24,233 nucleotides of DNA from a virus (Duplodnaviria > Caudoviricetes). Location of the stretch: positions 1 through 24,233 of IMG/VR virus record IMGVR_UViG_3300023119_001218; one strand, 5' to 3'. Position 1 is the first letter of the stretch; each line of letters opens with the position of its first letter. A program made the position numbers and the translations under genes. Of this stretch, positions 800 through 19,795 are shown one piece after another. The notes beneath the pieces were generated by a model that saw nothing but the letters and a program-made list of their open reading frames with translations, was not told where the DNA came from and did no database searches.

Positions 800-932
800 T
801 AGGTGCCCCTTGTACTCTTATTCGAAGAATGTTGTTTTGCAGAACTGCTTGACGCTCCTGCGGATTTTTTGTGTCGTTGTAGGCAACAGCCTTATTTTTC
901 TTAACCATTTTATCTACTTTTGGTTTATCCAT
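780..932 (-). CDS. Small basic hypothetical protein, 50 aa (MDKPKVDKMVKKNKAVAYNDTKNPQERQAVLQNNILRIRVQGAPNGKTTN)
   Basis: ATG overlaps the stop of the 3030-aa gene (TAATG). The ORF fills the whole gap and overlaps the next gene by 20 nt. It is below the ORF-track cutoff. Confidence 0.65.
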   Translation of the reverse strand: MDKPKVDKMVKKNKAVAYNDTKNPQERQAVLQNNILRIRVQGAPNGKTTN

Positions 933-3900
933 TAGTGTTTTCCTACTACTATTTCAATAACGCCTCTGTCGTTATCATCTTTGCTTTCAAGCGCCTTACC
1001 GATAACTGCACCAATTGCTGGAGTATTGTTTACTATAGCATATCCTGGAATTGCACTAGCAACTAGCAAGTCACCTTTTTGTACTTTTCCTAGAACCTTA
1101 CATGGAACACGCCCTTGCAGTGCAAGTGCTACTACATGCTCGCCTTCTAGTTCTGCGTTCATTAAGTGTGCAGGATTTGTTGATACAACACCTGCAACTC
1201 TATGTGTGCCATGATCTGTAGTTACGGTAAGTTCTGCGTCACCACCAAACACTAGTACAGTGCCCGGTTCATAATCTGCATCTGCCGTGTAGTTCTCTGC
1301 CAAGTCAGCGTAGTATGCTTCAGTAGCAGTTCCACGGAACAGGCTTGCAAATATTTCATTGTATTTTAGCGAAGCACTACCAATGTTGTATGTTGCATCA
1401 ACATCAGGTAGCACACCATCTGCATCAAATATGAATGGTGCAAAACTTGAGCTTGTTGCTACGTCTGCAACAACGATTGCAACTTGTCCTAGTGTTGTAA
1501 CACCAGTGTTAGCGCCAATTGCTATACCAGTTGATGCTGATCCTTTTTCTCCTGGTGCTTCAATAAACGAACTGTAAATCCAGTCAACTGCTAGACTTGG
1601 TTCACCGTTGAAGTTTGAAGTATTCTGTAGTGTACTTTCTGTAACACCAGTAGAACCAATATTAACCGAACCTGGTATTTCTATATCAGGTCCTGCTGTA
1701 ACAGCACCTGCTGTACCTACTGCTCTTAGTATTTCGCCTTGTGCAGGTGTTTTAAATACTAGTGTGGTTGTATCTAGTGATAATACTTCATAACTTGGAT
1801 CACCACCAAGTATCAAAGAGTTAACTTGAATACTACCACTAGCATCAGTTTTTACAATACTATTAACTTCACCAGTTGTTGACACATTTGAAATACCGTA
1901 AGTTCCTGCACCGGTTTTGATAAGTGCTTCACCCGGATCACTGCTTGATGCTATTAAACTTGACGGTTCAAAGTCTGCATCTGAAAGTCCACCACCTTCT
2001 GATATAACAGTACTGAATGGTACTTCGTCAATGTCATTATCTGAACTATCACCGCTCCAGTTACCTAGTACAGTACCATCTTGGATACGCTGAATTTTCT
2101 GTAATGGTAATTGTCCGTTGTTAATTGTTATCCAGCCTGTTGTAGCAGTAAACACATCATTATCAAAACTTGCTACTCCAAGATCGCTTTGAGTAATTCC
2201 TACAGCACTGGATCTTGTTGTCGCTGCATTTAAGTTTAATTTACTTTGTGCTATAGCGGCTGTTGCACTAACATCTGCATTAACAATACTACCTGGAGCA
2301 TACTGGAAGTTGATTGTTGTGTAACGATCTGTTACTTCTGATCCAACAACAGTAACTTCTCTGTTTGTATCAATAGTAATATCACTATCAGGATCCATTA
2401 CACCGTTGGCCCATTCGTCTACAGGTCCATCAATACATAATGCCTCAGCACCACCTAGAACAGCAATAACATCTGGGTCAGGTGATGAGCCTATTGGCTT
2501 ACCATCGCTAAACTCTCCAGTTAGTGGTTCATATATAATTTCAATTATATTACCTTCAACTGCAATACGTTCTATTACGTCAACTACTGTACCTGTTGCA
2601 CCTGTAATTGTTCCTGTAATTGTATCACCACGTTCGTATGGTCCACTAACAATTGATCCTGCATCTACGATTAGTTTTTTGTATTCTGTTGCAACAATTA
2701 ACTGTCCTTCAACTACTTGATCATCATTGTATGTTAACGAACGTAAATCTTTTAATTCGTCACTGTTTCCTAAGAAGTCGTCTACATAAGATTTAGTTGC
2801 TGCATCAGAGTCTGAAGTTGGTGTTGCTAGGTTAGTAATTGTGTTGCCTGCTGCGTTTAGATCGTCTGTCATTGGAACAGCACCGTTTGGAGCAAGCACA
2901 CCTGGGCCTAATTTATTAGCAACTGGATTACCGTTTACATCGTAACCTAAGCGTCTGTTAACATAACCACGTACAGCAAGTTCTGTTGGAACTGTGTCAG
3001 CAGCGTTATCAGTCATTGCTGTGTCTGTTGAGAATTCAGTAACAACCACACCACGCTTAAATCCAAGACCGTCAACATCTGAAAGTGCAATTGAAGCACT
3101 AAATGTAACAGTACCAGTACCTTGGTCAACGCTGAAGAAGCGTCCTACACGGAAGATACCGTTTTGGTCTGTACTTACATAGAACACACGACCTTTGCCA
3201 CGTTCGTCAACTTCGTTTGCTTGGTTTTTCTCTGCAGGCTCACCAAAGATAACGTTTGGATAGTTTGAATCATTAAATCCACCTGTACCAACGTCTAGGA
3301 AGTCATGTGATGTAGCACGACAGGTTGAAATGTTAATTGTAACGTCACCTGTAGCACCTTCAACTAGACCTGCGCGAAGTGTTACAGTTAAACTGCCACG
3401 CAATACTGGATCGTAAATACCTGTAGCGTCTGTTTGGTTAATGGTGTTGTAATCAGCAATGTCAACAACTACATATTCATTGTCTTCTGCTAGAGGAGAA
3501 ATAGTTTCTCTTGTTACTGATCCAGTACCATCTGTACCTGCTGCACCAAATGCAGTACCATCTAATGTTGCAGTTAGTGCAGCATCTGTGTATAGGTCTG
3601 CTGTTACGTTTACGCCAACAACAATATTATCAACATAATAAGTGTTGCCATTTAATTCTGTCATACCAACAACATCACTAAATGTAACTGCCTCACCACT
3701 TTGTAGGTTTATGTCACTGTTAAATGTTACATTTACAGGGTTAGCCTGTGTTGAAGCAGTAAGAGTTAATTCTGTAGTTACATCGTTAACTCCGCGAGCA
3801 TTAAATGCATAATGTTTTTTACCCTGCCAAGCAAACACCGGCGCTTCAACTAGACTTGCCTGTGTCCAACCTATTGGACGGTTTGCTTCTGGTGTTCTTA

Positions 3901-6900
3901 AGTTATTGTTAAGACGGAATATTTCATTACTGTCAAGTGTCGCCTGTAGAGCTAATACAACGTCTCCGATAGTACCACCTTTTTCAGTACCACCTGTTAA
4001 CGGAGTTGTACCATCAAACACATTTCCTACAACCTCTTGTGCTTTGTCAGATTTTACAAGCATTCTAATATAGTCATAACCTTCATCAAAACCTGCTTGT
4101 AAATATCCATCTTCAAGTTCATCACCAATACTGTTACTGTTTAAGAAACTAATTGAACGATAAATTTGTCCTGGGTTTTCATCAAATACAACCGCAGTTG
4201 ATGGACGAATTGTTAATACATCTGGTCTTGCCAAATCACTAATGACATGTGTTTGGTTTCTTCTATACTGTATAAGTTCACCAAATGGAGTATCTTCAAG
4301 TAAACCGTTAGTGCTAAACTGAGCATCGCTAGTTGAGAAATTAAGTTTGAAGACCCTACCATTAAAATATGGTGTACTTGCTTCTACCCAAATATTACCT
4401 TGTAGTGTAACTGCGGTAATTCCACCAGTACCATCTATTTCTGATACTTTGATTAAACAATCGTTATCTGGAGTTACACCACCTAAGTCTGCACCGCTTA
4501 CTAGGAATGTATCGTTAACAGTGTAACTTGAACCACCGTTTTCAATGGTTGCAGTATACTGATTAGCAATAGTTTTTTGAACATTAAACAATGCTCCTGC
4601 TGCAAATGCATCATCTGTAGTTGCAACTACTGTAATATCTGTTCCAACATTGACATATTCACCTACAGTATGTCCTGCCAATGCTGCTGAAGCAACTTCA
4701 TATCTTGCTATAACTGGAACACCTGGGTGATAAACATCAAATTCAGAACGGTTGGATGGCGGATCTTTGAAATCATATGCATACAAGAATAAGTTTTCTT
4801 CGTTGTTGCCGTATCCTGTTGAGTCAACAGTAGCCGGTACACTTCCTGCCCCAAGAGCACCTAGTGTATCACCTGTAAGTTGGTTTGTTGTATCAAATGC
4901 ACCTACAACGCCTGTTAGATAAATTACCCTGCTACCGCCTGTTACAACTGTACTATCTCCTAAGTCTGCCGTATCAACTGAAACAGTACCATATGCTGTT
5001 GAACCTGCTTGCGTTAGTACTTCGCCTGCTGCTATAATGTAAGGATCTGTAAGTGTTAGCACAACATCAGCATCAAAAACTTTTGCTGCTTGTATCATGT
5101 CTTCTGCAAGACGAACACTATCTGGAATTTCGTTTGGATCTGATCCTTCAGCAACTAGTCCGTATTCACCATAACATGAAGAACCAGTTAGCGATCTAAT
5201 CTCTGAACCATTCTTTGAGTAATATGATGTCCAACAGTAGTATGTAAACATAGACACCATTTCTGATAGCGCACCATTAACAGCAACTAGACCATATCCT
5301 AGATCGTTAATCTGTGTGAAGTCGTTTCCTAGTATTGATCTGTTACCTGCTGTTTGTAGTGTAATTGGTAATGGTGCAGCAATACTTTGAACAATTCTTC
5401 TTACAATTAAGGATTGTTGTTGTAGTATTTCGTCATATGCTGACTGTAGGGCTGCGTCTGCCCAAGTACGATCAGGAGTATCATCTGCAGGCATATTAGA
5501 TGTTTCACCATCTGTAATGACTGTGTTGATAATGTCTATCAAGTCTCCTGCTTCAGTTACTTCGGTAGCACTAGCAACATTACCAGCATTGTTATTATAA
5601 CCAACAACAGCAGAACTTCCATCTAACATAGCGCCTACGATTGTTTTTAATTGTACATATGCTGCGACTGTGGCTGCTTGTTCACCTGCAGGTAATTGTG
5701 CAACTGCTCCGTCAACATAAGATTCCGCAGCAGATTTTGTTCCTAAATTGCCTCCGTACTGTATATCGTAACTTAATGCGTCAACAATATATCTTACATC
5801 TCTTTCACATTTTACTGAATCATATGTAAATGACGGTGTAAAAGGTGCAATGCTACCTGCAACTTGTGTTGCAATCCAATCAGTTAATTCGGTTGCAATA
5901 AGGCTTCTGTTTAACTGAAGGATCTGTCTTGCATATAGTTTATTAGTATCTACACCAGGGTCAGTAAATGTAAGTGCGTCGACTACCCCATCGCCTGGTT
6001 CTGCTGTATAAGTTGTTCCATTTGTAATAATGTCAATTACTTCATCATATGCATCGCCAACACGAGTTGTTGCTGTTGAGTCTGCTGCTACTGAATCAAG
6101 TGCAAGAGTTTGTGTTTTACCTACGGCAATAGCAGCAGTAGTTTCTGCCAATTGATCGTCAATGACAACACTTGCAGTTCCTCTACGATATGCAATACCA
6201 TTGTATAGAGCATTGAAGTTTGTTCCTAGTACAGTGTCAAGTGCTACACCGTTAACGATAATGTTTGAGTCTCTTTCACACTTTTCTTCGTTAAATTCAA
6301 ATGTTCCAATTGAATCAAGATCAACACCAGTTGAAAGTTCTGAAGTTAGTCCAGTAAATCCTTGACCATCATTTGAGCTTGGATCAAGTATAAGATCTGC
6401 TGTACCAAAGTCTGGGTCATATAGTGTAACAGCGTTAACTTGGAAACGTCTACCATCAATGTAGAAAGCACACGGAACTTGAGGACGTCTTACAAACAAA
6501 CCTTGAGGGTCTGCTTGTGAACCTAAACTCTGTACTCTTAGGCGGAACGCTGATCCGTCTACACGTTCTGTAACCTGTACTGCGGAGTTACCAACAAACG
6601 CATCAACAAACAATCCTCCACGGAACGCTTGTTTGTTTAAACTTCCTGCAAAACCTGTACCTGTCTGACAATATGGTGATTTAGTAAGCACTTGCCCTTC
6701 TGGGTCAAGCACCATTTGGAAACCGCCATGTCCTTGACCAGTAATGTTACGTAGAATAGTTGCATCGTTCATTAAGAACACATCCATTTGGTCGTTTCTT
6801 AATGGTGGGTTATAATTTGCATCAAATGCAAAAGTAACAGTATCAACCAAGTTGTTAATTACAGTGTCTGGTCCGTCTATTTCTGTCCAGTAATTAGCAA

Positions 6901-9900
6901 TCTCAGTTGCATCAAAAGTGCTGCCTGATGTATTTTCAATTCTACACTGATAATATCTATCTATGCCAGCAAAGTTAAACGTTACAACATTACCAACTCT
7001 ATACAGCTCACCTGATGCCCATGTAGCAGGTTCTGCACTACCGTTAAATAGATCATAATCGTATACCAAGTTTGCGCCAGGAAGGTCCGGACGAACTGGT
7101 GCTGCGCCACTTGGACCATATAGTGTACTCGGCGCTGCTCCTTGTATTAGTTGTGCAGCAATAGTATAAATGTGTTGGATAGCGTCAGCAGTTTCGGCAT
7201 CTTGGCTTCCGTCTACAGGCAATGCGCCATCGTAATATTCGCCCTGTGCTTCTAGTGCAAATTCGTTGCCACCATTACGTAAGTCTTTTACAAGGGCATC
7301 AACAATAAGTCCTGCATCTCTAAAACATGTTGCTCTACTGTAAACACCGAGCAAAGCAGGATATGTTGTTTCTGTATAGTTTACAACTTGTTCTTGGATA
7401 AATTCTCTGTTATCTTCTAATACAAGTGCTGCTGTTTCCCATTTACCTACGTTAGTATAACCTGCACCAATGTTTTTAAGAGATCCTGGTTTTTTCAAAT
7501 AGTGATAACCAAAGTATCCATCTACTTCATTAGTTAATGGATTAATGTACTGTTTACCGTTTGGTACTGTTGCTACATTAAACGAATAACCAACGCCACC
7601 TATATCAGCAGCATCAATTGTAATAAGTTCGTTTGCTTGCCAATTTTCACCAGCATTTGTTACTGTAATGTCAGTAATTGCGCCAGAAGCACTTACAGTT
7701 ATTTCAAATTCAGCACCTTCACCGTAATACTGTGCAGTATATCCATTTGAAGGTATAGTGTAAGTTCCTGCGGCTCTTCCACTGTTAATTTGTGGTTCAA
7801 ACTCTAAACTTTCAATAGCACTGTTACCAAGCACTAGTCCGTCAAATACTGCATCACGATAGAAGAATGTGTTTGCATATCTTGATTGTGATACACGTTT
7901 CTTAGGACGAATAATTACACGTCTAAATTCATCACCTTTGATAGATACGTTTGCTGGAACACGAATTGGAAAATCTTCTTCGTAAATACCTGATTCAATT
8001 CTAATGCTAATTTGTGTACTAACAACATAGTTGCCGTACTCTAGTTCTTCGCCTTCTTCAAATTCAATTGGTTTTAAAAGTTGTATTTCAACTTCGTCTG
8101 TTTCAACAACACTAACCGCTCTTGGACCTGATTCATATCTATAATCAATAATTCTACCAATAGCACCTGAGTTTTTACCTCTTATAACCTTACCAGGTAT
8201 AATGTCTGTATTTTCTGGATTTGCTTGGTCAACAAAACCATAGTTACCATTTGAAATATTAATTTTATAAGTTGTTGTACCATCAACAATACTAGGTGCT
8301 TGTAGAGGACCATCGTTAATAACATCAATAACAGTATCAAACTTTGCTTCAGCAGCACTATCTGCTGCTGCATCTGGTACAATAGCAGGTTCAATGTACT
8401 GTTCAACACGGGTTTGATACAGTGTTGGCGGAGCAGTATTAGTTAAAACATAATCTCTAACAAGTGTTTTTGCATATTCAATACCTGCAATGGTGTATGC
8501 TTTTTGTGTTCCAATAGCAACAGCGGAACTTGCATTTGAATAATATGTAAGTCCTGCATAACGAGATAGATAGTTAGCATTGTTACCTAATAAGATATCT
8601 AATCTAACAGCATCTAGTATAAGTTGGACATCACGTTCACATATAGCAATATCGTAACTTTCTGCAAAACTTGGATATGTTGCATTAATATATGCTGTAA
8701 CTTCTTTTGCCACCCATTCTTTGTTTTGTAAAATAAGTGCGTTAGCATTTGTACGTCCGCTGATTGTACTTGTAATACCTGCTGTAACAACATCTGATTT
8801 ACCTAAACCGTTACCATATGTCATCGTTTGTTGATATGGACCCGGTTCTGGCGGAGCAGAAAGAATTATTTCTTCTGCTTTTTGTGCTGCTGCATTAATT
8901 GTTCTGTATGCATATGCAGGGTTACGTCCTTCCTTGCCGTCTGGTGTAAATTCTTGCGAGTCGCTTCCTGCTGTACTTACGTATAAGTTAACTGTACTTG
9001 TTGCTGCCGCATTATCAACATACAATTTTGTTGCTGCTTGTAAGTCATCAGGACCATTAGGTAAACCTTTTCCTCTAAGATCGCCAGGATGATCAAATAA
9101 ATTTAACGCACCTGTCATTGAGTCGCCTTGACGGCGAACTGCACTCTTACGAGGAATAGCAACGTTAGATAACCAAAAACCTTCTAGATCTTCATCATAG
9201 CCGCCATCTGTAATTGTAAATGTTCCGCTGCCGCCAGCAAGTAATATTCTACCTGTTCCGTCGAGGGCATCTTCTGCTGTCTCGTACAAGGAAATATGAT
9301 CACCATCTGGGATACCTAAGTAATAAGTTCCGCCAGTTACTACTCCAAAAGGATCAGTGCCAGTTGAATTAAACACAAACGGAGCACCAATATATGCATC
9401 TGATAATCCGTGGTTAAGTATTTCTAAGTTTCCTAATTCAAGATCTGTTGCTGTGAATGTATAACCGCTTGCATCTGCAGGTTCATCACCTAGTCGTAAG
9501 CCGCCGCCAGCAACTTCTTTTTCTTGATAATTTCTATCAGCAAAACTTTTGTTAATAACAAGATCACTTACAGTTAAATCTGTACCGTGAACAGAGTTAA
9601 ACGTATCAATTGCTGCTTGGTTAACTGTTACGTTAGCAATTGGCTGTGTAGCAGCATTTAATGGACCAGCAAGTGTAGGTTCTGGGTCATTAGCAACACG
9701 AGAAACTAATTGTTTTAATATTACTTTGCCGTCAACAGTGAAGTCAAATCCGATAGTATCGGGCGATCCGTCTAAACTGTTATCAGAAGCAAGTTCTAAT
9801 AATGCTAAACCACTGCCATCGGATTTAACTAGCGGAACTTTGTTTTCTTGTCCTTCATAGTTGTCTGGTGTATCACTTAAATCAGTAAAACTAATTTGCC

Positions 9901-10024
9901 CACCGATACCAAAAACTGCATACAGTTCTTGGAAGTTTTCGTTTACCTTACGAAAGGATTCACGAATACTATCACCGGTACCGTCGTTACCTGAAACACC
10001 AATATCAATATCTTGTCTTGCCAT
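932..10024 (-). CDS. Giant mosaic virion structural protein (baseplate/tail fibre or spike), 3030 aa
   Basis: gp9/gp10-like N-terminus (IDIGVSGNDGTGDSIRESFRKVNENFQELY); AATKxYVD fibre motifs; pectin-lyase-like beta-helix segments (YVSTAGSD, GIYEEDFPIRVPANVSIKGD); C-terminal ADLAENY...GRVPCKV...IGKALE resembling a peptidase G2-type intramolecular chaperone; GGAG RBS at 10031-10034. Confidence 0.85.
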   Translation of the reverse strand: MARQDIDIGVSGNDGTGDSIRESFRKVNENFQELYAVFGIGGQISFTDLSDTPDNYEGQENKVPLVKSDGSGLALLELASDNSLDGSPDTIGFDFTVDGKVILKQLVSRVANDPEPTLAGPLNAATQPIANVTVNQAAIDTFNSVHGTDLTVSDLVINKSFADRNYQEKEVAGGGLRLGDEPADASGYTFTATDLELGNLEILNHGLSDAYIGAPFVFNSTGTDPFGVVTGGTYYLGIPDGDHISLYETAEDALDGTGRILLAGGSGTFTITDGGYDEDLEGFWLSNVAIPRKSAVRRQGDSMTGALNLFDHPGDLRGKGLPNGPDDLQAATKLYVDNAAATSTVNLYVSTAGSDSQEFTPDGKEGRNPAYAYRTINAAAQKAEEIILSAPPEPGPYQQTMTYGNGLGKSDVVTAGITSTISGRTNANALILQNKEWVAKEVTAYINATYPSFAESYDIAICERDVQLILDAVRLDILLGNNANYLSRYAGLTYYSNASSAVAIGTQKAYTIAGIEYAKTLVRDYVLTNTAPPTLYQTRVEQYIEPAIVPDAAADSAAEAKFDTVIDVINDGPLQAPSIVDGTTTYKINISNGNYGFVDQANPENTDIIPGKVIRGKNSGAIGRIIDYRYESGPRAVSVVETDEVEIQLLKPIEFEEGEELEYGNYVVSTQISIRIESGIYEEDFPIRVPANVSIKGDEFRRVIIRPKKRVSQSRYANTFFYRDAVFDGLVLGNSAIESLEFEPQINSGRAAGTYTIPSNGYTAQYYGEGAEFEITVSASGAITDITVTNAGENWQANELITIDAADIGGVGYSFNVATVPNGKQYINPLTNEVDGYFGYHYLKKPGSLKNIGAGYTNVGKWETAALVLEDNREFIQEQVVNYTETTYPALLGVYSRATCFRDAGLIVDALVKDLRNGGNEFALEAQGEYYDGALPVDGSQDAETADAIQHIYTIAAQLIQGAAPSTLYGPSGAAPVRPDLPGANLVYDYDLFNGSAEPATWASGELYRVGNVVTFNFAGIDRYYQCRIENTSGSTFDATEIANYWTEIDGPDTVINNLVDTVTFAFDANYNPPLRNDQMDVFLMNDATILRNITGQGHGGFQMVLDPEGQVLTKSPYCQTGTGFAGSLNKQAFRGGLFVDAFVGNSAVQVTERVDGSAFRLRVQSLGSQADPQGLFVRRPQVPCAFYIDGRRFQVNAVTLYDPDFGTADLILDPSSNDGQGFTGLTSELSTGVDLDSIGTFEFNEEKCERDSNIIVNGVALDTVLGTNFNALYNGIAYRRGTASVVIDDQLAETTAAIAVGKTQTLALDSVAADSTATTRVGDAYDEVIDIITNGTTYTAEPGDGVVDALTFTDPGVDTNKLYARQILQLNRSLIATELTDWIATQVAGSIAPFTPSFTYDSVKCERDVRYIVDALSYDIQYGGNLGTKSAAESYVDGAVAQLPAGEQAATVAAYVQLKTIVGAMLDGSSAVVGYNNNAGNVASATEVTEAGDLIDIINTVITDGETSNMPADDTPDRTWADAALQSAYDEILQQQSLIVRRIVQSIAAPLPITLQTAGNRSILGNDFTQINDLGYGLVAVNGALSEMVSMFTYYCWTSYYSKNGSEIRSLTGSSCYGEYGLVAEGSDPNEIPDSVRLAEDMIQAAKVFDADVVLTLTDPYIIAAGEVLTQAGSTAYGTVSVDTADLGDSTVVTGGSRVIYLTGVVGAFDTTNQLTGDTLGALGAGSVPATVDSTGYGNNEENLFLYAYDFKDPPSNRSEFDVYHPGVPVIARYEVASAALAGHTVGEYVNVGTDITVVATTDDAFAAGALFNVQKTIANQYTATIENGGSSYTVNDTFLVSGADLGGVTPDNDCLIKVSEIDGTGGITAVTLQGNIWVEASTPYFNGRVFKLNFSTSDAQFSTNGLLEDTPFGELIQYRRNQTHVISDLARPDVLTIRPSTAVVFDENPGQIYRSISFLNSNSIGDELEDGYLQAGFDEGYDYIRMLVKSDKAQEVVGNVFDGTTPLTGGTEKGGTIGDVVLALQATLDSNEIFRLNNNLRTPEANRPIGWTQASLVEAPVFAWQGKKHYAFNARGVNDVTTELTLTASTQANPVNVTFNSDINLQSGEAVTFSDVVGMTELNGNTYYVDNIVVGVNVTADLYTDAALTATLDGTAFGAAGTDGTGSVTRETISPLAEDNEYVVVDIADYNTINQTDATGIYDPVLRGSLTVTLRAGLVEGATGDVTINISTCRATSHDFLDVGTGGFNDSNYPNVIFGEPAEKNQANEVDERGKGRVFYVSTDQNGIFRVGRFFSVDQGTGTVTFSASIALSDVDGLGFKRGVVVTEFSTDTAMTDNAADTVPTELAVRGYVNRRLGYDVNGNPVANKLGPGVLAPNGAVPMTDDLNAAGNTITNLATPTSDSDAATKSYVDDFLGNSDELKDLRSLTYNDDQVVEGQLIVATEYKKLIVDAGSIVSGPYERGDTITGTITGATGTVVDVIERIAVEGNIIEIIYEPLTGEFSDGKPIGSSPDPDVIAVLGGAEALCIDGPVDEWANGVMDPDSDITIDTNREVTVVGSEVTDRYTTINFQYAPGSIVNADVSATAAIAQSKLNLNAATTRSSAVGITQSDLGVASFDNDVFTATTGWITINNGQLPLQKIQRIQDGTVLGNWSGDSSDNDIDEVPFSTVISEGGGLSDADFEPSSLIASSSDPGEALIKTGAGTYGISNVSTTGEVNSIVKTDASGSIQVNSLILGGDPSYEVLSLDTTTLVFKTPAQGEILRAVGTAGAVTAGPDIEIPGSVNIGSTGVTESTLQNTSNFNGEPSLAVDWIYSSFIEAPGEKGSASTGIAIGANTGVTTLGQVAIVVADVATSSSFAPFIFDADGVLPDVDATYNIGSASLKYNEIFASLFRGTATEAYYADLAENYTADADYEPGTVLVFGGDAELTVTTDHGTHRVAGVVSTNPAHLMNAELEGEHVVALALQGRVPCKVLGKVQKGDLLVASAIPGYAIVNNTPAIGAVIGKALESKDDNDRGVIEIVVGKH

Positions 10025-12221: not shown

Positions 12222-13040
12222 TCATTTCCAGTTTTCTCTTACCCATAAATCTTTACAATAATGTGGATTAGGATCACCATGAAATACTGCTATACTTGTT
12301 TCATTTAGTATTTTAGGTTCTCCTGGTGTTTCAAAATCTCTGTTGCCTTTTGTTCCTACCATACGAGGTTTACCTCGCATCTCCCATTTATAACTTTGTA
12401 TCCATTCATCGGGCCAATAGTCAAAATCTTGTGTTATCTTGTGACGTATCCAATCTTGATCTCCATGCCAGCGTCGAATTGGTTCTGTAGGATTACGAGC
12501 AAAGTCCTTCCAAACTTGAGGGTGTTGTCCTGAATCAAGTCTAAACACACTTGAATTAAATTTAGGATAATTTTTAATTACAAATCTATTGAAGTCTCTG
12601 CATATTAAAAATTCCCCAGGTTTATGTGTAAACAAATGATCAATGTTACGAAACACAATTAAATCGAGATCTAGATATAATATAGTTCCTCTAAGTGGCA
12701 GTGCTTTGTCAAAAAACATCGGCTTATACCACCAGCCGACTGCTCCACCCATACCGCCAATCTTTGGTAACGGCTCTATTCTAACTCCAGGATCAATTCC
12801 GTCGGGGCGTTCTGTGAAACAAACAAATTCATAGTTAAGTGTACAGTTACGTTTTACCATATTGTACAAGTTGTTTACATACTCCGGACCATACTTGGCT
12901 CCGAATTTCAAACAAACTACATAGTTTTGTTTTGTTCCCATCGGGGTCGGATTTAGCCTCTCTTTGGCTAAATCCAATTTTTCTTGTAACTTACGAGCTT
13001 TCCGTTCGCCTTTAGTTTCCCCGGGATAATAAGTTTTCAT
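12222..13040 (-). CDS. GT-A fold glycosyltransferase (GT8-like)
   Basis: VVCLKFGAKYGPEYVNNL N-terminal motif, FVCFTE, LYLDLD (DxD), FNSSV, GDQDWI and VFHGDPNPH. Its ATG directly follows the queD stop codon. Confidence 0.8.
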   Translation of the reverse strand: MKTYYPGETKGERKARKLQEKLDLAKERLNPTPMGTKQNYVVCLKFGAKYGPEYVNNLYNMVKRNCTLNYEFVCFTERPDGIDPGVRIEPLPKIGGMGGAVGWWYKPMFFDKALPLRGTILYLDLDLIVFRNIDHLFTHKPGEFLICRDFNRFVIKNYPKFNSSVFRLDSGQHPQVWKDFARNPTEPIRRWHGDQDWIRHKITQDFDYWPDEWIQSYKWEMRGKPRMVGTKGNRDFETPGEPKILNETSIAVFHGDPNPHYCKDLWVRENWK

Positions 13041-13490
13041 CTAACCTTCATAAATTGCTGAATTGGCTCCATGTTCGGCACATTCTACTCGCACACAATA
13101 ACAACGATTGTTTGTTTGTTCACGTACTAGTTGATCTGCAAATTTAAATGCGTGTTCTGCAAACTTCTCTGCACCAACGCCGTCAAAAATACGTAGTTCT
13201 GCTAGACCAAACTCTTCCATTTCTTGTAGTTTATATAAAAATGGATCAGCCCTATCTACTGCTACCTTATGATCAAAACTATCTTCAAGCCAAGCCTTCA
13301 AAGGTTTTAGTCCTCCAAAGTCTACAGCCCAGTTTTTATTATCTAATTCGTCACAACCAAATGTAAATGTAAATGCTAATGAATAACCGTGTAGCAGATG
13401 ACAATGTGAATGATCTGCGTTAGGCTGGCGGAACACTGCTGATAAGCCAATGTTGTGTCCGTAATGTTTTGTACTGTAATATTTACCCAT
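13041..13490 (-). CDS. queD: 6-carboxy-5,6,7,8-tetrahydropterin synthase (QueD/PTPS family)
   Basis: CHLLHGY active-site motif, VDFGGLK, FDHK, GAEKFA and VECAEHGANSAIY; GGAGG RBS at 13501-13497. Confidence 0.92.
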   Translation of the reverse strand: MGKYYSTKHYGHNIGLSAVFRQPNADHSHCHLLHGYSLAFTFTFGCDELDNKNWAVDFGGLKPLKAWLEDSFDHKVAVDRADPFLYKLQEMEEFGLAELRIFDGVGAEKFAEHAFKFADQLVREQTNNRCYCVRVECAEHGANSAIYEG

Positions 13491-13566
13491 CTCTTGCCTC
13501 CTGTATTAGTCGAGTAAGTTTGATGCGCAGAGTGTTTATAGTGGGATGAGCATATAAGACCACTGT
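13491..13566 (-). ncRNA. Structured 5' leader of queD; candidate preQ1-I-like riboswitch variant
   Basis: AGUGG-UCUUAUAUGCUCAUC-CCACU-AUAAACAC: 5-bp stem, loop, then A-rich tail as in preQ1-I aptamers. Loop AUGCUCA can pair with downstream UGCGCAU. It lies between the promoter and queD. Confidence 0.5.
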
Positions 13567-13572
13567 ATACAT

Positions 13573-13601
13573 ATATTATACTATATTACTTATCTTGTCA
13601 A
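13573..13601 (-). promoter_or_regulatory. Sigma70-type promoter for queD-glycosyltransferase
   Basis: TTGACA (13601-13596) followed by TATAAT at 15 nt (13580-13575) or TAATAT at 17 nt (13578-13573). Confidence 0.75.
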
Positions 13602-14163
13602 GTGAAACATTAAATTTTTTCCAAGATTTTGGTAACTCCCAATTTTCTTCTGCATAAACAGTAAATTCTACATCTGCAAAACATTCAAATATTTTTGATA
13701 TTTGGTAAATCCAATATCTAGGATCAACTGCTGGTTTTTCTGCTTCTGCATAATTTTTTGTACCTTTGTAAATGTTATTAATAAGTTTATTTTTGCTGTA
13801 CAAATCAAAACCTATAAGTTTAACTTTTTTCTCTTTTGAGTATTTTGCTCCTAAAAGAACAGCATAAGGTCCAGCACCCCAGTGTGCGGGCAAGTCCCAA
13901 CGGTCCATACCCGGATACGGAATATCAGGCAGTATACGCAATTTATGTTCTAGGTTGTATAGATCGTAATGTTCTTTTCTAGACCATATCTTTGGTCTAT
14001 CTTCAAAAGAAATTTCGAACACTTCCTTTAGCATTCTTTTGTCAACACACACTAGATGATTAACTTCAAAGTCGCGGAATATAGCATTACACCCTATTTT
14101 AATTTCTTTAATATTATTAAGGTTAATACCTTTGCGACTTTCGCCGTTGCCAATTATTAACAT
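13576..14163 (-). CDS. DUF115/Maf/sialyltransferase-like Rossmannoid protein (possible glycosyltransferase)
   Basis: IIGNGESR...IGCNAIFRD...LVCVD and GAGPYA...LIGFDL motifs, typical of the MptE-like/CstII-like fold. Confidence 0.6.
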   Translation of the reverse strand: MLIIGNGESRKGINLNNIKEIKIGCNAIFRDFEVNHLVCVDKRMLKEVFEISFEDRPKIWSRKEHYDLYNLEHKLRILPDIPYPGMDRWDLPAHWGAGPYAVLLGAKYSKEKKVKLIGFDLYSKNKLINNIYKGTKNYAEAEKPAVDPRYWIYQISKIFECFADVEFTVYAEENWELPKSWKKFNVSLDKISNIV

Positions 14164-14212: not shown

Positions 14213-16129
14213 ATGGGCGTAGCATACGTAGACACATTTAGAAGAATAGTACTCCAACCTGACGGAGTAACCCTTACTGCTGATGATATAGGAGACACAC
14301 TTACTATTACTAGAGGTAATGGTGTTGCTTTTAATCCAGTAGAAGGTACTGACAGTTTTGAAATAGACGTCAATTACGAATTGTATATGCCTGTTGGTAC
14401 AACAGAACTAAGATTAAACGATGTGCATTCCAATTATTCAAGTGTAACACTAACAGGCGGAAGCAATATTACAGTTACACGGGTAAGCGATACTGAAGTA
14501 AGTCTTGCAGCCACAGTTGGTGGCGCCAGCAAGAGTATATCAGGCATTACACTTTCAAACCCTATAGTAATACAAACAACATCGGCACATAGTTTTACTG
14601 AAGGACGTCCAGTAACCATTGTAGACGTAGTAGGTACAACTCAGTTGAATGGTAATGAATATTACATGGATATTCTTACATCAGACACATTTGCACTGTA
14701 CACCAATGATGCACTAACTAATCCAGTTGACGGTACTAGCGGATTTAGCGCATACGTAAGTGGGGGTGTTGCAACTGGTGAATATTTCCCCAGAACACAA
14801 CTAAGCGAATTATCTGATGTAGAAACAGCAGGTGTTGTAACAAATGATATTTTAGCCTATGACGGTACAGAATTTGTTCCTACATCAACATTTATAGGTG
14901 ATGTCAAAGGCAGTGTTGTAGGTGATGACTCGACAATATTAGTTGATGGAGTTAATGGAAGAATACTTGCACCAGTAGAAAAATTTAGTGGATACACTGC
15001 AAGTCCATTGTATGATATTAACGAAAACGGTGGTGTTAATTTTATAGATGCTAATGTGTTGCTAGGTTTTGTTGGAGGCAGCGCACAAACGGCAAACGCA
15101 GCCCTTAAAAGTCAGTCCTTGGCAGTTGATTGGACACCGGTTGTAGGATCTATATATACCAATAATAAGTTTCAAATAAGAACTATTCAAGGAAACGCAA
15201 CCGATGTATTGCGTGACAGTGTTGGATTAGCACCAGAAGGCTGGGGAGACACTGCTATAATAGGAAATATTAACGATACCGGTAGTTCAGTAGAAATGGT
15301 TGGCGGTATTGGTGTTTCCGGAAGTTATACAACCATTGTAGGCGAACAGGTTCAGATTAATACCGACGGCAACTACCCACTTTTACTCAACTGTGGAGTA
15401 CAACTCGGCCTTAATAGTGGAATTACTTTTGAAGGTCCGTTTAGTGATGCCAATGATACGTATTTGGTTGCAGATTTACAAACAGCAAGTAGAACAATTA
15501 CCTTACCAGATGCAAGTGGAACAGTTGTCTTAATAGACAGCGGAGGGAAAGTAGTACAGCCTCTAGTAGGAGACTTAACAGGATCAGTGTTTGCTGATGA
15601 TTCAAGTCTAATGGTAGACGGAGTTTCTGGTAATTTATATTCTACTGACATTTATTTTACTGGTACGTTATATCAAAACGGTGTAGCGTTCCAAAGTGGA
15701 GCAACAGTAAGCGACAAGTCAGATAACGTTGATTATAATATTTTATTCACAAGCGATACATCTGGAACACAGACTGTAGCAGGAATAGACAACGGATCTC
15801 TTATATACAATCCAAGCACAGGGCAAGTTAGTGCTGTTGATTTTAACTCAACATCAGACGAAAATCTTAAAAAGAACGTTACTACTATTGATTCAGCATT
15901 GAATAAATTGTTAGATTTAAGAGGCGTAAACTTTAACTGGATCGAAAACGGAAATTACGCAATGGGTGTAATTGCTCAAGAAGTTGAAAAAGTTATTCCG
16001 GAAGTTGTTAGCACAAGCGGAGATACAAAAAGAGTAAACTACGGAGCAATGATAGGACTATTAATAGAAGCAATCAAGGAGCAACAAATACTTATTCAAG
16101 ACCTTAGTAGTAAAATGAAGGAATTGTAA
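14213..16129 (+). CDS. Tail fibre protein with C-terminal peptidase S74 intramolecular chaperone
   Basis: TSDENLKKNV...LRGVNFNW...GVIAQEVEKVIPEVV...VNYGAMIGLLIEAIKE plus coiled coil; E1-FCCH-like beta domain (ISGITLSNPIVI...VVGTTQLNGNEYY); LSELSDV motif; GDxxGSVxxDDS repeats. Confidence 0.88.
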   Translation: MGVAYVDTFRRIVLQPDGVTLTADDIGDTLTITRGNGVAFNPVEGTDSFEIDVNYELYMPVGTTELRLNDVHSNYSSVTLTGGSNITVTRVSDTEVSLAATVGGASKSISGITLSNPIVIQTTSAHSFTEGRPVTIVDVVGTTQLNGNEYYMDILTSDTFALYTNDALTNPVDGTSGFSAYVSGGVATGEYFPRTQLSELSDVETAGVVTNDILAYDGTEFVPTSTFIGDVKGSVVGDDSTILVDGVNGRILAPVEKFSGYTASPLYDINENGGVNFIDANVLLGFVGGSAQTANAALKSQSLAVDWTPVVGSIYTNNKFQIRTIQGNATDVLRDSVGLAPEGWGDTAIIGNINDTGSSVEMVGGIGVSGSYTTIVGEQVQINTDGNYPLLLNCGVQLGLNSGITFEGPFSDANDTYLVADLQTASRTITLPDASGTVVLIDSGGKVVQPLVGDLTGSVFADDSSLMVDGVSGNLYSTDIYFTGTLYQNGVAFQSGATVSDKSDNVDYNILFTSDTSGTQTVAGIDNGSLIYNPSTGQVSAVDFNSTSDENLKKNVTTIDSALNKLLDLRGVNFNWIENGNYAMGVIAQEVEKVIPEVVSTSGDTKRVNYGAMIGLLIEAIKEQQILIQDLSSKMKEL

Positions 16130-17319
16130 TGGGGTTTAGTGTTAAGGGCAGTTCGGTTCTACAAGAAAATTTTATTCCGTTTGTTTGGGGATCTGGCGAT
16201 CAAGTCACACCACCTACTTTTAATAGTTCATGGACACCTGAGCCACCAAGCGATTCATACTACGGATTTGATGTTGCAGTTGGACTTAATAAAATAGTAG
16301 TAGGTGCATATAGAGATCATACCGTTGACGGTGCTGACCTTGGAGCAGTTTATGTTTATGATCTAGATGGTTCAAATGAAATAAAAATATCAAATACAAT
16401 GCCATCAAAAGCCACCTTTGATGATTTTGGATATTCTGTAGATATAGGATGTGGTAAAATTGCAGTCGGGTCAAGAGGATATGATGGTGCAGTAGCCGAA
16501 AGCGGCAGAGTTGAAATTTTTGATATTGATGGAACAAAGGTTGTAGAACTTGATAGGCCTACAGGACATGGTTTTGCTAGATTCGGACAATCATTGGCTA
16601 TTGCTGATAACAGAGTTGTAATAGGTGCTCCGTACAGTGACGCTTACTTTACGCAAGGTGGTGCTGCTTTTGTTTACAATCTAGACGGTACAAACGAAAT
16701 TGAATTAGTTCCTTCTAGTAAAAGTAGTAATAGATTATACGGTTATGAAGTTGCTATAGGTCACGGAGTTATTGCAGTTGCAGAAATAGGTAGAGAAGGC
16801 ACAGCTGATGTAGTAGGAAGAGTTTTCTTGTTTGATTATAGCGGAAACGAAATTGGAACTATTACAGGTTCAAACACAGCCGGTGATGACTTCGGTAGAA
16901 AAATATCAATCGGTTGCGGGAAAATTGTAGTTGCAGAGCCTTCTACAGGTGTTGGTGACGGGGCTGCATATGTGTTTGACTTGCAAGGTAATCAGTTAAC
17001 AACGTTTGTGGCTGCGGCTCACGATGTGTCAATAGGTAATGGTAGAATTATAGTAAGTAGTGGCAGCACAGCAAGAATTTATAATTTAGATTTCCAAGAT
17101 CTAGGCACTTTGTCATTCCCTGGCACTTCAGGAGTAGGTGCTACATATACAAGCGATACTTCATTTGGATTTGCCCGTACTTCTCATGCAATCGGTAATG
17201 GGAAGATTGTAGTTGGAGCGCCATACGCTGGAAGTAACCAAGGCGAAGTTTTTGTGTTCGATACTCCGCATGTTTACACAATCTATGATGCAATAGATTT
17301 GCAAAGAGGAAATAAGTAA
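16129..17319 (+). CDS. FG-GAP-repeat seven-bladed beta-propeller protein 1 (putative receptor-binding/fibre-tip protein)
   Basis: Repeats of FGxSVAI...IVVGAP...GAVYVYD; TAATG coupling to the fibre gene. Confidence 0.85.
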   Translation: MGFSVKGSSVLQENFIPFVWGSGDQVTPPTFNSSWTPEPPSDSYYGFDVAVGLNKIVVGAYRDHTVDGADLGAVYVYDLDGSNEIKISNTMPSKATFDDFGYSVDIGCGKIAVGSRGYDGAVAESGRVEIFDIDGTKVVELDRPTGHGFARFGQSLAIADNRVVIGAPYSDAYFTQGGAAFVYNLDGTNEIELVPSSKSSNRLYGYEVAIGHGVIAVAEIGREGTADVVGRVFLFDYSGNEIGTITGSNTAGDDFGRKISIGCGKIVVAEPSTGVGDGAAYVFDLQGNQLTTFVAAAHDVSIGNGRIIVSSGSTARIYNLDFQDLGTLSFPGTSGVGATYTSDTSFGFARTSHAIGNGKIVVGAPYAGSNQGEVFVFDTPHVYTIYDAIDLQRGNK

Positions 17320-18389
17320 TGGCATTCTATTTACAGGGTACAAAAGTAATTGATGATACTGGTAACCCTATCCTTGACGGTTTTGATAGTGTAGCAAATA
17401 TTGCTGCTACCGAAGTAAAAATTACCACCGGAAGCGATACTGCCGGAGACAATACAGGACTTTCGGTTGCTGCTGGAATGCACAATACATGGGCCTATAC
17501 AATACGTCAATACAATAGTAGTGCGGGTAGGGCAGTATGGTGGACATATAATTTTATAGAAAGTTATGGAGGTGTTGGTACTGTTTTTGGAAGAGGTGGT
17601 GTTGCTACTAGAAGTGGAATAATAGCAATTGGTGATCCTAACTATGATGGATCCGGCACTGCTATAGGACAAATTAGATTATCAGTTGGATCAAACAACC
17701 AAAACTTCCTAGCAGAAACAAATATTGGTCCTGCTACAGCAGTAGACTATTCATATTTTGGAATAAAACTTGCAATGGGCTGTGGCAAACTTGCTGCTGG
17801 TACAATTTCAGGAATTAACAATACTCCAACAAAAGTTTGTATTTTTGATCTCGATAGAACCCAACCAGCAGGCGGTAGCCAATCAAAAAATCGGTATACA
17901 GTCCAAACCAGCAACGAAATTATAATTCAAGATCCGTCAGGGTCAACAGGCAGTTCAACCGGCTTCGGACGGTACGGTCTATCTCTTAACCATGCACGTT
18001 TAGCAGTTGGAGATCCGCTTTACGATAGCGGATCATTTAATAACTCCGGAATAGTTTACATTTTTGATATGTATGGCAATTATCTTTTTCCTATAGAACC
18101 TAGTGATCCTGGTAATTCTGGATATTTTGGTTCATCGATTGCAATAGGTTGTGGGAAAATTGTAGTAGGTGCTGAAGGCGGCAGTCTTAGAGAGGGTGCA
18201 GTTTACATTTATGATCTAGATGGTTCAAATGAAATAAAAATTACAGCAAGCGATGGTGCTACCAATACTTATTTTGGACATAGTGTTGACGTAAGAAACA
18301 ATAAAATTTTAGTAGGCGCACAGGGTGATTCTAGCAGTCGAGGAGCAGTTTATCTATATGATCTAGACGGTTCAAATGAAATAAAAATA
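16342..18389 (+). repeat. Dispersed near-identical DNA repeat shared by propeller genes 1 and 2 (copies at 16342-16389, 18208-18241 and 18342-18389)
   Basis: TTTATGATCTAGATGGTTCAAATGAAATAAAAAT (34 nt) is identical at 16355-16388 and 18208-18241. 16342-16389 and 18342-18389 differ at 3 of 48 positions. Confidence 0.85.
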
Positions 18390-18572
18390 GTAGGATCTGA
18401 TACCGATGCTGGCGATCAATTTGGTGCATCAGTTGCTATAGGATCTAGTAAAATATACGTAGGATGTCCTAATGTACTAGTAAACCTAGAAGCACGGGGT
18501 GCTGTATACGAATACGAAATCGGATCAACAATTGATACAATGTATGAAGACTGGTTGGAGGTTCTATATTAA
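17319..18572 (+). CDS. FG-GAP-repeat beta-propeller protein 2
   Basis: YFGSSIAIGCGKIVVGA...GAVYIYDLDG repeats; TAATG coupling. Confidence 0.85.
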   Translation: MAFYLQGTKVIDDTGNPILDGFDSVANIAATEVKITTGSDTAGDNTGLSVAAGMHNTWAYTIRQYNSSAGRAVWWTYNFIESYGGVGTVFGRGGVATRSGIIAIGDPNYDGSGTAIGQIRLSVGSNNQNFLAETNIGPATAVDYSYFGIKLAMGCGKLAAGTISGINNTPTKVCIFDLDRTQPAGGSQSKNRYTVQTSNEIIIQDPSGSTGSSTGFGRYGLSLNHARLAVGDPLYDSGSFNNSGIVYIFDMYGNYLFPIEPSDPGNSGYFGSSIAIGCGKIVVGAEGGSLREGAVYIYDLDGSNEIKITASDGATNTYFGHSVDVRNNKILVGAQGDSSSRGAVYLYDLDGSNEIKIVGSDTDAGDQFGASVAIGSSKIYVGCPNVLVNLEARGAVYEYEIGSTIDTMYEDWLEVLY

Positions 18573-19795
18573 TGGCTTACAAAATAAACGGTAATAATGT
18601 ACAAATAGATTCAACTAATTTTTATATAGATGTTAGTTCTCTTGATACAACCACACTTCCAAGCAATCAAGTAGATATTACAGGATCAGACGGTGCTGCT
18701 GGCGATAAGTTTAGTTCTGGGATAGCAATTGGCAACGGTAAAATTTATGTTGGGAGGGACGAGTTTGGCGAAGCCAATGGAGCAACTCGTGCGGCTTCTT
18801 TTCATATATTCAACTTAGACGGTACCGAAGAAGCAAGAATTGTACCAAATTATCCACTATCAAACAACTACTACGGCCGGAACTTTACCAATAATAATTC
18901 AATAGCAGCAGGATGCGGAAAGGTAGTAGTCGGTGCTTATGGATTGGACGAATGGACCTTGGGAGGTTCGGCCTTTATTTTTGACGCAGATGGTTCAAAC
19001 CAGATACACATACAAAATCCAAACTATGCAATTGGTACAGTAAATGATACTTTTGGTGCTGCTGTTGCAATAGGACACGGATTGATCGCTATTGGCGATC
19101 GTGCCCACCTCGGCGGTGGCACAATATATATCTACTCATTAGATGGAAATTTTATACGCGAGATGGACTATGGGTTTTTAAACGGAGGGCTTAGTGACGA
19201 TTACGGGAGAAGTCTTGCAATAGGAAATAATAGAATTATTGTTGGAGCATGGGCAGACGACGATGATGGCAATGCTAGTGGATCAGCATATATTCTCGAC
19301 TTTGAAGGAAATCTAGTAAACAAAATTACAGCAAGCGATGCAGCCGCTGGTGATAACTTTGGTTACAAAGTAGCGGCTGGATGCGGAAAGTTTTTAGTAG
19401 GTGCGCCTGCTGCTAGAAAGGTATATGTATTTGATGCTGATGGCAATGAAGAATTTATTATTGATGAAAGTGCATCATCAGACATCTTTTTTGGTAAGGG
19501 ACTTGCTATCGGTGATGGAAGAATAGTAGTCGGAATGGAACAAGCAGACTCGCCAGGGTTTAATAACGACGGCGGAATGAAGGTTTATGATCTTTCAGGA
19601 ACTGAACTATTTGTTTATAGACCTGAAGTTGCAGAGGTTTATTCAGGTAATTGTGTGGCTATTGGCCACGGTAAGATTGCTCTTGATATTGCAGGCGGCA
19701 GTTTTGCAAGCTCAAGTATACAAGGATCAGTGAGCCTTTGGGATACACCCAAACAAACTCACATCCTTGATTTTATTAAACACCAAATTAGATAA
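18572..19795 (+). CDS. FG-GAP-repeat beta-propeller protein 3
   Basis: KITASDAAAGDNFGYKVA and IIVGAWADDDDGNASGSAYI repeats; GGAGG upstream; TAATG coupling. Confidence 0.85.
   Translation: MAYKINGNNVQIDSTNFYIDVSSLDTTTLPSNQVDITGSDGAAGDKFSSGIAIGNGKIYVGRDEFGEANGATRAASFHIFNLDGTEEARIVPNYPLSNNYYGRNFTNNNSIAAGCGKVVVGAYGLDEWTLGGSAFIFDADGSNQIHIQNPNYAIGTVNDTFGAAVAIGHGLIAIGDRAHLGGGTIYIYSLDGNFIREMDYGFLNGGLSDDYGRSLAIGNNRIIVGAWADDDDGNASGSAYILDFEGNLVNKITASDAAAGDNFGYKVAAGCGKFLVGAPAARKVYVFDADGNEEFIIDESASSDIFFGKGLAIGDGRIVVGMEQADSPGFNNDGGMKVYDLSGTELFVYRPEVAEVYSGNCVAIGHGKIALDIAGGSFASSSIQGSVSLWDTPKQTHILDFIKHQIR

Follow-up and report, generated by a model that had tools for sequence, protein, structure and literature searches.

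A conserved pseudoknot in phage queD leaders as a candidate translational ON riboswitch with an altered preQ1-I-type pocket

Does the leader of a phage queD gene act as a metabolite sensor, and if so, what would it bind and how would it control translation? The question is raised by a viral contig of 24,233 bases, analysed here as a whole (the window), for which an earlier note had proposed a preQ1-I-like riboswitch variant ahead of queD. The contig carries tail and baseplate genes, a UV endonuclease and an IscA-like gene, and since its relatives reach 340-380 kb, the window can be regarded as part of the genome of an aquatic jumbo phage not yet in culture. The gene downstream of the proposed element (13041..13490, minus strand, 149 aa) is a QueD/PTPS homolog by family matches, in agreement with its naming as queD: its ORF, read from 13490 to 13041, matches the Pfam PTPS family above cut-off and TIGR03367 below cut-off, and contains a CxxxHGY motif. 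The same CxxxHGY, instead of the CxxxHGH by which QueD (CPH4 synthase) is defined (PMC10516641), is found in 113 of 120 ORFs led by the RNA motif described below. A glycosyltransferase-like gene (phrog_1962; 12222..13040, minus strand) begins immediately after the queD stop codon, and an ORF of 195 aa with no assigned function (phrog_30607; 13576..14163, minus strand) lies upstream, its stop codon overlapping the -10 region of the predicted queD promoter. Among the 14 window proteins scanned, folE was not found. The strand opposite to queD encodes a 3030-aa tail/baseplate protein and three tandem FG-GAP-repeat-like proteins (932-10024 and 16129-19795), which are ordinary in this phage group.

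All features of the leader are on the minus strand. The -35 hexamer TTGACA (13596..13601), recognized by sequence and promoter scan, lies within the last codons of the upstream ORF. Between it and its proposed partner, a perfect TATAAT (13580-13575), the spacing is no more than 15 nt, and the partner at 17-nt spacing is TAATAT, with 10/12 matches in all; the promoter is a less exact one than proposed, and its -10 region (13573..13580) can be read in two registers. The predicted start falls at about 13568-13565, a start near 13566-13568 being plausible. Of 176 regions upstream of the motif, 52 contain a sigma70-like promoter, compared with 3.0 in shuffles, and 49 of the 52 have 16-17 nt spacing; [AT]AAATA occurs within 25 nt in 60 of the 176 regions (14.9 in shuffles). 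Nine metatranscriptomes contain part of the stretch, but only in contigs where genes of either strand are covered alike and from which start site and expression are unreadable; one of these contigs spans 13429-14146, across the promoter.

Downstream of the predicted start, the leader contains the 5' strand of stem P1 (AGUGG, 13560..13564, with an invariant closing G), loop L1 (13554..13559; a variable H, which is U here, an invariant C and U, and variable bases after them) and the 5' strand of P2 (AUGC-UCA, 13547..13553). These are followed by a U-C junction (13545..13546), in which C13545 stands at the place of the preQ1-I specificity cytosine by positional analogy (PMC8752633), the 3' strand of P1 (CCACU, 13540..13544), an A-rich loop L3 that ends in an invariant A-Y-U-C (13530..13539), and the 3' strand of P2 (UG-C-GCAU, 13523..13529), the putative switching strand, whose partner would be either the loop or the start-codon region. 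The assignments come from alignment (P1 5' strand, L1, L3), covariation and pairing tests (P2 5' strand), and covariation and pattern scans (P1 3' strand). The Shine-Dalgarno (SD) sequence GGAGG (13497..13501) is placed 6 nt ahead of the AUG. Both helices are where the earlier note had put them: P1 pairs 13564-13560 with 13544-13540 around a 15-nt loop, and 13553-13547 forms six of seven pairs with 13529-13523, leaving U13549.C13527 unpaired. In single-sequence folding the leader alone folds no better than chance (z -0.15), so the evidence for the motif is comparative.

Close QueD relatives are encoded on an estimated ~940 viral stretches, of which the best 80 were taken as the set of queD leaders from related phages on which conservation and covariation could be checked. 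The motif model, which was built partly from these loci, matches 77 of the 80 QueD-selected loci, one of them twice; of the three misses, one contig stops 38 nt before the ATG, and in two queD lies directly behind another ORF. In an alignment of 66 distinct rows, six of which have a 3-nt junction and sit one column out of register, 87.8% of the cells pair, versus 66.2% in shuffles (0/500 as high) and 36-51% with the partners slid; 10 of 12 pairs show two-sided changes, and both helices covary. Parsimony on the QueD tree (137 rows, from a parser that demanded three P1 pairs and the pocket-side pair) counts 58 two-sided changes versus 19 breaks for P1 (slid control 5/257) and 150 versus 52 for P2 (slid control 29/507), all of them counts inflated by exchange between leaders and coding regions. 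A held-out pattern fixing two of the five P1 pairs retrieved 118 loci, all with at least 4/5 pairs and 111 with 5/5, compared with 5/5 P1 pairs in 1/52 for a chance pattern of like length without the motif. On these sequence comparisons the stem, the loop and the loop-tail pairing are real and strongly conserved.

The motif directly heads QueD in 115 of the 118 held-out loci, and in the other three an inserted gene stands between it and queD. For the pocket-side pair, the estimates are ~2000 stretches with A-U and ~290 with G-C, the latter heading QueD in 113 of 120 sampled cases, while a complete scan for A.C gave one genuine case among 20 matches. Five QueD subfamilies are preceded by the motif, which stays with QueD proteins as little as ~36% identical: identical cores are found ahead of QueDs 36-44% identical, and 5 of 13 cores common to different proteins precede QueDs less than 50% identical. 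One strong copy per contig is present in 21/21 large contigs (four weak second matches in them were rejected as chance), and the motif travels with queD even where queD is tens of kb from folE and queE. Across these genomes, a strict link of the motif to queD-led operons is apparent. Four leaders head other genes with queD following, namely a cupin gene (L296), two methyltransferase-like genes (L302, L309), and a gene for a canonical CxxxHGH QueD (L308) in tandem with a phage-type QueD. Locus L025 has two motif copies, one before an inserted methyltransferase-like gene and the other before queD (2131-2178 and 2928-2975), which suggests gene insertion with leader duplication. Locus L012 (2743-3447) encodes a QueD with a long in-frame N-terminal extension, and the motif is ahead of the extension.

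A search of 185,579 prokaryote species by one strict pattern gave seven matches, three of them genuine and all three on 5.5-6.3 kb MAG contigs with phage-type neighbours (by eye). By this pattern the motif appears to be phage-restricted, with none in bona fide bacterial contigs; diverged cellular forms may exist. Among cultured phages no QueD above 60% identity was found, DNA searches with two leaders for cultured carriers returned chance matches only, and the motif model has no strong match in Paride, Phosso, Vibrio 2.275.O, ACP17 or BUCT-ZZ01. Vibrio phage 2.275.O has a short preQ1-I-like leader (MG592671.1:334845-334879; locus L345:1501-1535) with P1 and tail as in the queD motif and the SD right after U-C, preceding a queC-gat-folE operon that adjoins queF and yhhQ. 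This single instance is OFF-like and represents the only lead in a cultured phage; relatives of it were seen in 0/80 QueC leaders (by eye), and a pattern for it gave 52 chance matches. The literature searched contained no description of the queD motif or of the folE twin introduced below. In the available parts of PMC10690425, the terms are absent from the main text and supplements 3-6 have no PTPS or queD match, the gene table comprising only genes within 25 bp; queD and preQ are absent from the main text of a 2026 preprint on non-coding mining; and the portions at hand of PMC6884629 and PMC11625349 do not mention riboswitches and the word phage, respectively.

Can this element be assigned to the preQ1-I class? 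The comparison is with the type I riboswitch, which we take to be Rfam RF00522. A check against the Rfam preQ1 models spoke against the assignment, as no preQ1 family was matched at E up to 10 between 12500 and 14500 (a search run without a positive control), and five other motif loci had no preQ1 match at E up to 5. The architecture is nevertheless that of preQ1-I type I (Carnobacterium antarcticum; PMC8752633, PMC11625349, PMC10622847): a small H-type pseudoknot, a 5-bp P1 with a G-C closing pair, Y-C ahead of the 3' strand of P1, an A-rich L3, a second conserved tail C at the C31 position, and control of a que gene. The key type I bases are G5, U6, U7, U16, C17, A30 and C31 (PMC8752633). 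In 58 distinct rows picked by protein, not by motif, and mapped to preQ1-I by position, the equivalents of G5 and C31 are kept in 58/58, that of C17, the specificity cytosine before the P1 3' strand, in 57/58 with one alignment gap, and the U before it (U16) in 40/58. In contrast, the U6 position is variable (A 25, U 20, C 13), the U7 position is C in 58/58, and the A30 position, just before the C31 equivalent, is U in 58/58. The variable base is followed in L1 by an invariant C and U (each 58/58), and the A, U and C at the end of L3 are likewise each found in 58/58. The preQ1-I subtype consensus has UU after P1 in types I and III (PMC11625349, PMC10622847, PMC8752633), and U6C costs 35,000-fold affinity in the E. 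coli aptamer (PMC10622847); the same study reports burial of the SD in P2.

The queD motif further differs from preQ1-I in lacking a tail adenine that would read the minor-groove edge (A27/A29/A30), in its strongly covarying P2 of 6-8 bp, and in its occurrence only in phages. Whereas preQ1-I buries the SD in P2 or uses a terminator, so that the ligand turns expression OFF, the SD of the queD motif is outside the knot and is predicted to be freed; its more distant placement, pointed out earlier for this copy, is general, the distance from the core to the start of the SD being 9-30 nt in 176 of 178 leaders. The description as a preQ1-I-like variant therefore holds for the covarying H-type pseudoknot, the layout and the tie to queD, and does not hold for class membership, given the three differing pocket bases and the Rfam result: the motif is built like preQ1-I but fails membership, its pseudoknot being a comparative, not a structural, one. 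Conservation clusters at the helix junction, as in an aptamer. Guanidine-III and SAM-II are H-type pseudoknots too, in which conserved bases of L1 cross a long P2, and guanidine-III is a translational ON switch of similar size. They differ from the queD motif in their conserved bases and gene context, and neither was matched in Rfam at E up to 10.

Two rival partners have to be considered for the switch. The pairing proposed earlier joins the loop to GAUGGGUA (13491-13484, minus strand), the loop complement that covers the start codon. The near duplication of loop and tail in this copy makes it strong here (-9.1 kcal/mol); over 41 loop types the own start is favoured in 19 and the start of others in 22 (p 0.46). 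Without such a preference we rejected it as the family switch and consider it a quirk of this copy. Folding points, with moderate confidence, to the P2 3' strand as the conserved rival partner, which would otherwise mask the SD or AUG. Of 178 distinct leaders, 164 have this strand paired to the SD/AUG region in the minimum free energy structure, and only 17 have it paired to the loop. In this copy the predicted OFF state is an alternative hairpin over SD and AUG (13484..13529; z -2.36), in which the P2 3' strand (13529-13522) contributes to -10.9 kcal/mol, compared with -5.1 without it. When the knot is blocked, the mean opening cost over the 178 leaders falls from 7.5 to 4.3 kcal/mol, with a drop of at least 1 in 157; the cost in this copy changes from 10.1 to 5.1, which leaves ~5 kcal/mol of masking once the knot has formed.

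The controls temper this result. For 25 of 30 types, the P2 3' strand extended by 3 nt favours the ribosome site of its own leader, whereas the 5-nt strand alone does so in 18 versus 12 of 30 (p 0.39), in a test covering 176 of the 178 leaders after two with the SD less than 8 nt away were dropped. A shuffled strand pairs on average 3.57 bases with the ribosome region versus 3.62 for the real one, and gives a median drop of 2.35 versus 3.19 kcal/mol, the real value exceeding the control in 121 of 178 related leaders. Hence a mutually exclusive structure over the ribosome site is seen in folding, and the shuffled-strand and 5-mer controls weaken it. P2 itself is weak, with a median duplex energy of -5.65 kcal/mol. 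A translational ON switch is the best reading of the leader and is moderately supported by these predictions; that the switch would be gated by a ligand we consider somewhat better than an even bet.

A minimal twin of the motif, found ahead of folE, comprises a short P1, a loop AUCCWC and the sequence AAC(A)-UC-GGAG, in which the SD occupies the place of P2. It is present in 47 of 80 folE-selected loci (33 distinct), where selection demanded three P1 pairs. In a comparison of 31 of the 33 distinct loci, all four P1 pairs change on both sides and the three loop-SD pairs never vary, which is no proof of an OFF pairing. Metagenomes contain 121 matches, 45 of them well-paired, and 41 of these 45 head folE. 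Both motifs have in common a core in which U-C-X-H-C precedes the 3' strand of P1 and the tail reads A-A-Y-U-C-X'-G; the X-X' pair is C-G at folE and either A-U or G-C at queD. The queD motif is located within 6 kb in 16 of the 47 twin loci, and the twin could be parsed in only 7 of 21 folE loci of large contigs. Its extra tail A goes with an A-U closing pair of P1; examples are L661:5925-5954 and L657:1093-1123, from the folE leader set L655-L734. With the SD within the knot, the twin is predicted to be wired OFF; its other closing pairs and 1-nt L1 may indicate a different ligand. Rfam searches of folE-twin loci gave nothing relevant, and inspection by eye of 32 regions upstream of queE showed no twin. 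A second conserved type of folE leader is a hairpin with loop ACAAMG and a covarying stem, often with the complementary CCGUGU just before the SD (L634:1322-1400, L635:1322-1400; also L223, L239, L254 and L259), and has no Rfam match. DNAVirus_406 (Fremin et al. 2023; PMC10690425 supplements, in part) is a viral, mostly freshwater motif within 25 bp of folE that may be either the twin or this second type. Being 66 nt long and linked to folE, it is unlike the queD motif, as compared by description and not by alignment.

The genes of the pathway narrow the range of signals. FolE is encoded in 20 of the 21 large motif-bearing contigs, only 6 of which are at least 90% complete, and so is a DpdL-like family of small T-fold-like proteins (20/21) that has the LxxxHRHxF signature given for DpdL (PMC10516641) and matches proteins of ACP17 and phiST. 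QueE is present in 5/5 contigs, QueF in 1/5 and a likely transglycosylase in 5/5. There is no clear QueC in the 21 large contigs (6 of them at 90% completeness or above); matches over cut-off in three were rejected as partial (~60 positions) and weak, one being NAD-synthetase-like by eye. The transglycosylase assignment is a lead only, since it depends on an ESM cluster (0.94) with TGT on 17% of its members, and there is no PHROG or NCBIfam match. The TGT-like protein of ~510-580 aa adjoins the DpdL-like gene (L333-L337) and shares 37% identity with a protein that lacks annotation in the Pseudomonas phages PA5oct and Paride; it is a candidate for an unrecognised DpdA subfamily. PA5oct, a related cultured phage, has restriction-resistant, G-modified DNA (PMC12191111). 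The presence of folE, queE and the DpdL-like gene, with no clear queC, makes preQ0 or preQ1 an unlikely signal, and by gene content the pathway likely ends at CDG or 7-deazaguanine.

The ligand had been proposed to be preQ0, preQ1 or a related purine or pterin. From this range preQ0 and preQ1 lose their lead, as U6, U7 and A30 differ and no clear QueC is found, and a pterin becomes the favoured reading. The invariant U and the two invariant cytosines are suggestive of a guanine-faced ligand; in other riboswitches, guanine and reduced pterins are read by pockets that combine C and U. If a single ligand acts OFF at folE and ON at queD, the gene logic points to the intermediate between them, dihydroneopterin triphosphate (H2NTP). 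We tentatively name H2NTP or dihydroneopterin, at odds that overall stay below even. A precedent is the THF-II riboswitch (folE motif; PMC6800512), which controls folE at the ribosome site with a cytosine implicated in recognition, and which binds reduced pterins including 7,8-dihydroneopterin at ~18 uM. It differs in being a two-stem hairpin with an internal loop, the RBS in P1 and no pseudoknot, known from Rhizobiales and metagenomes and predicted OFF only (PMC6800512); neither the queD motif nor the folE twin has an Rfam THF-II match.

The explanation that we prefer, by a slight edge over even odds, is a conserved phage RNA pseudoknot acting as a translational ON riboswitch that would respond to a guanine-faced metabolite from 7-deazaguanine synthesis, with H2NTP or a closely related reduced pterin as the likeliest candidate. 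Without ligand, the P2 3' strand would pair downstream and hide the SD or AUG. A ligand held between P1 and P2, with the two invariant cytosines and the invariant U as candidate contacts, would lock the weak P2, withdraw the switching strand and open the start site. H2NTP would suit this role as FolE product, QueD substrate and folate branch point: one metabolite would turn the folE twin off and queD on, and pterin would be drained into DNA-base modification only when plentiful. The variable base next to P1, unusual in a tight pocket, weighs against this riboswitch, as do the four leaders that head genes other than the usual QueD, although queD follows in them. The main rival, which we judge unlikely, is a protein-binding translational operator, in which translation of queD, and of folE, would be set by a conserved protein, of phage or host origin, bound to the pseudoknot. 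Phage pseudoknots with such a function are known (PMC535899, PMC3014915), the invariant loop bases would also suit a protein site, and the one phage group to which the motif is limited could supply its own protein. The T4 gene 32 operator, a leader pseudoknot ahead of the ribosome site of a phage mRNA, is a repressing element bound by the product of its own gene (PMC535899); the queD core is instead common to divergent QueDs of five subfamilies, which makes QueD itself an unlikely binder and still leaves room for another protein. The position of the invariant bases at the helix junction, where preQ1-I has its pocket, argues for a small molecule rather than a protein.

Other ligands are less probable again. 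Guanine released by a DNA transglycosylase, 7-deazaguanine, CDG or GTP all have the guanine-like face that a cytosine reads, the DpdL-like and TGT-like genes are present, and an excess of guanine or GTP could sensibly switch queD on; we regard such a purine-type signal as improbable, because an end product should switch queD off, GTP or guanine should not switch folE off, and the queE upstream regions seen by eye carry no twin. A true preQ0 or preQ1 sensor with a rebuilt pocket, supplied by host QueC and QueF, would account for the type I layout and the retained G5, C17, C31 and frequent U16 equivalents, and is very improbable in view of the pocket substitutions, the affinity lost with U6C, the Rfam and QueC results and an ON polarity that is odd for an end product. 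Marginally lower still we place a ligand-independent element, such as a fixed 5' knot shielding the mRNA end, a device for a constant translation level or a temperature- or ion-sensitive leader: it would fit the location at the predicted 5' end and the weak P2, but would have no need for invariant unpaired bases, a conserved U.C mismatch or a link to queD and folE alone out of hundreds of genes.

To our knowledge, riboswitches are known almost only from cellular genomes. The queD leader is a phage-restricted riboswitch candidate in which the altered preQ1-I-type pocket and the predicted ON output are new. With RNAs of 25-45 nt and few ligands on the shortlist, the question is directly testable. 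At about one chance in three, a shade below that given to the ligand itself, we envisage a phage-only riboswitch class for H2NTP, a rewired preQ1-I fold of opposite polarity (OFF at folE, ON at queD) by which aquatic jumbo phages would meter the flow of pterin to folate synthesis in the host on one side and to the 7-deazaguanine modification of viral DNA on the other. If this is true, one of the best-studied small aptamer folds would gain a new ligand and an ON output, the folE twin of ~25 nt would be among the smallest natural aptamers, and lytic phages would read host metabolite pools through their own RNA.
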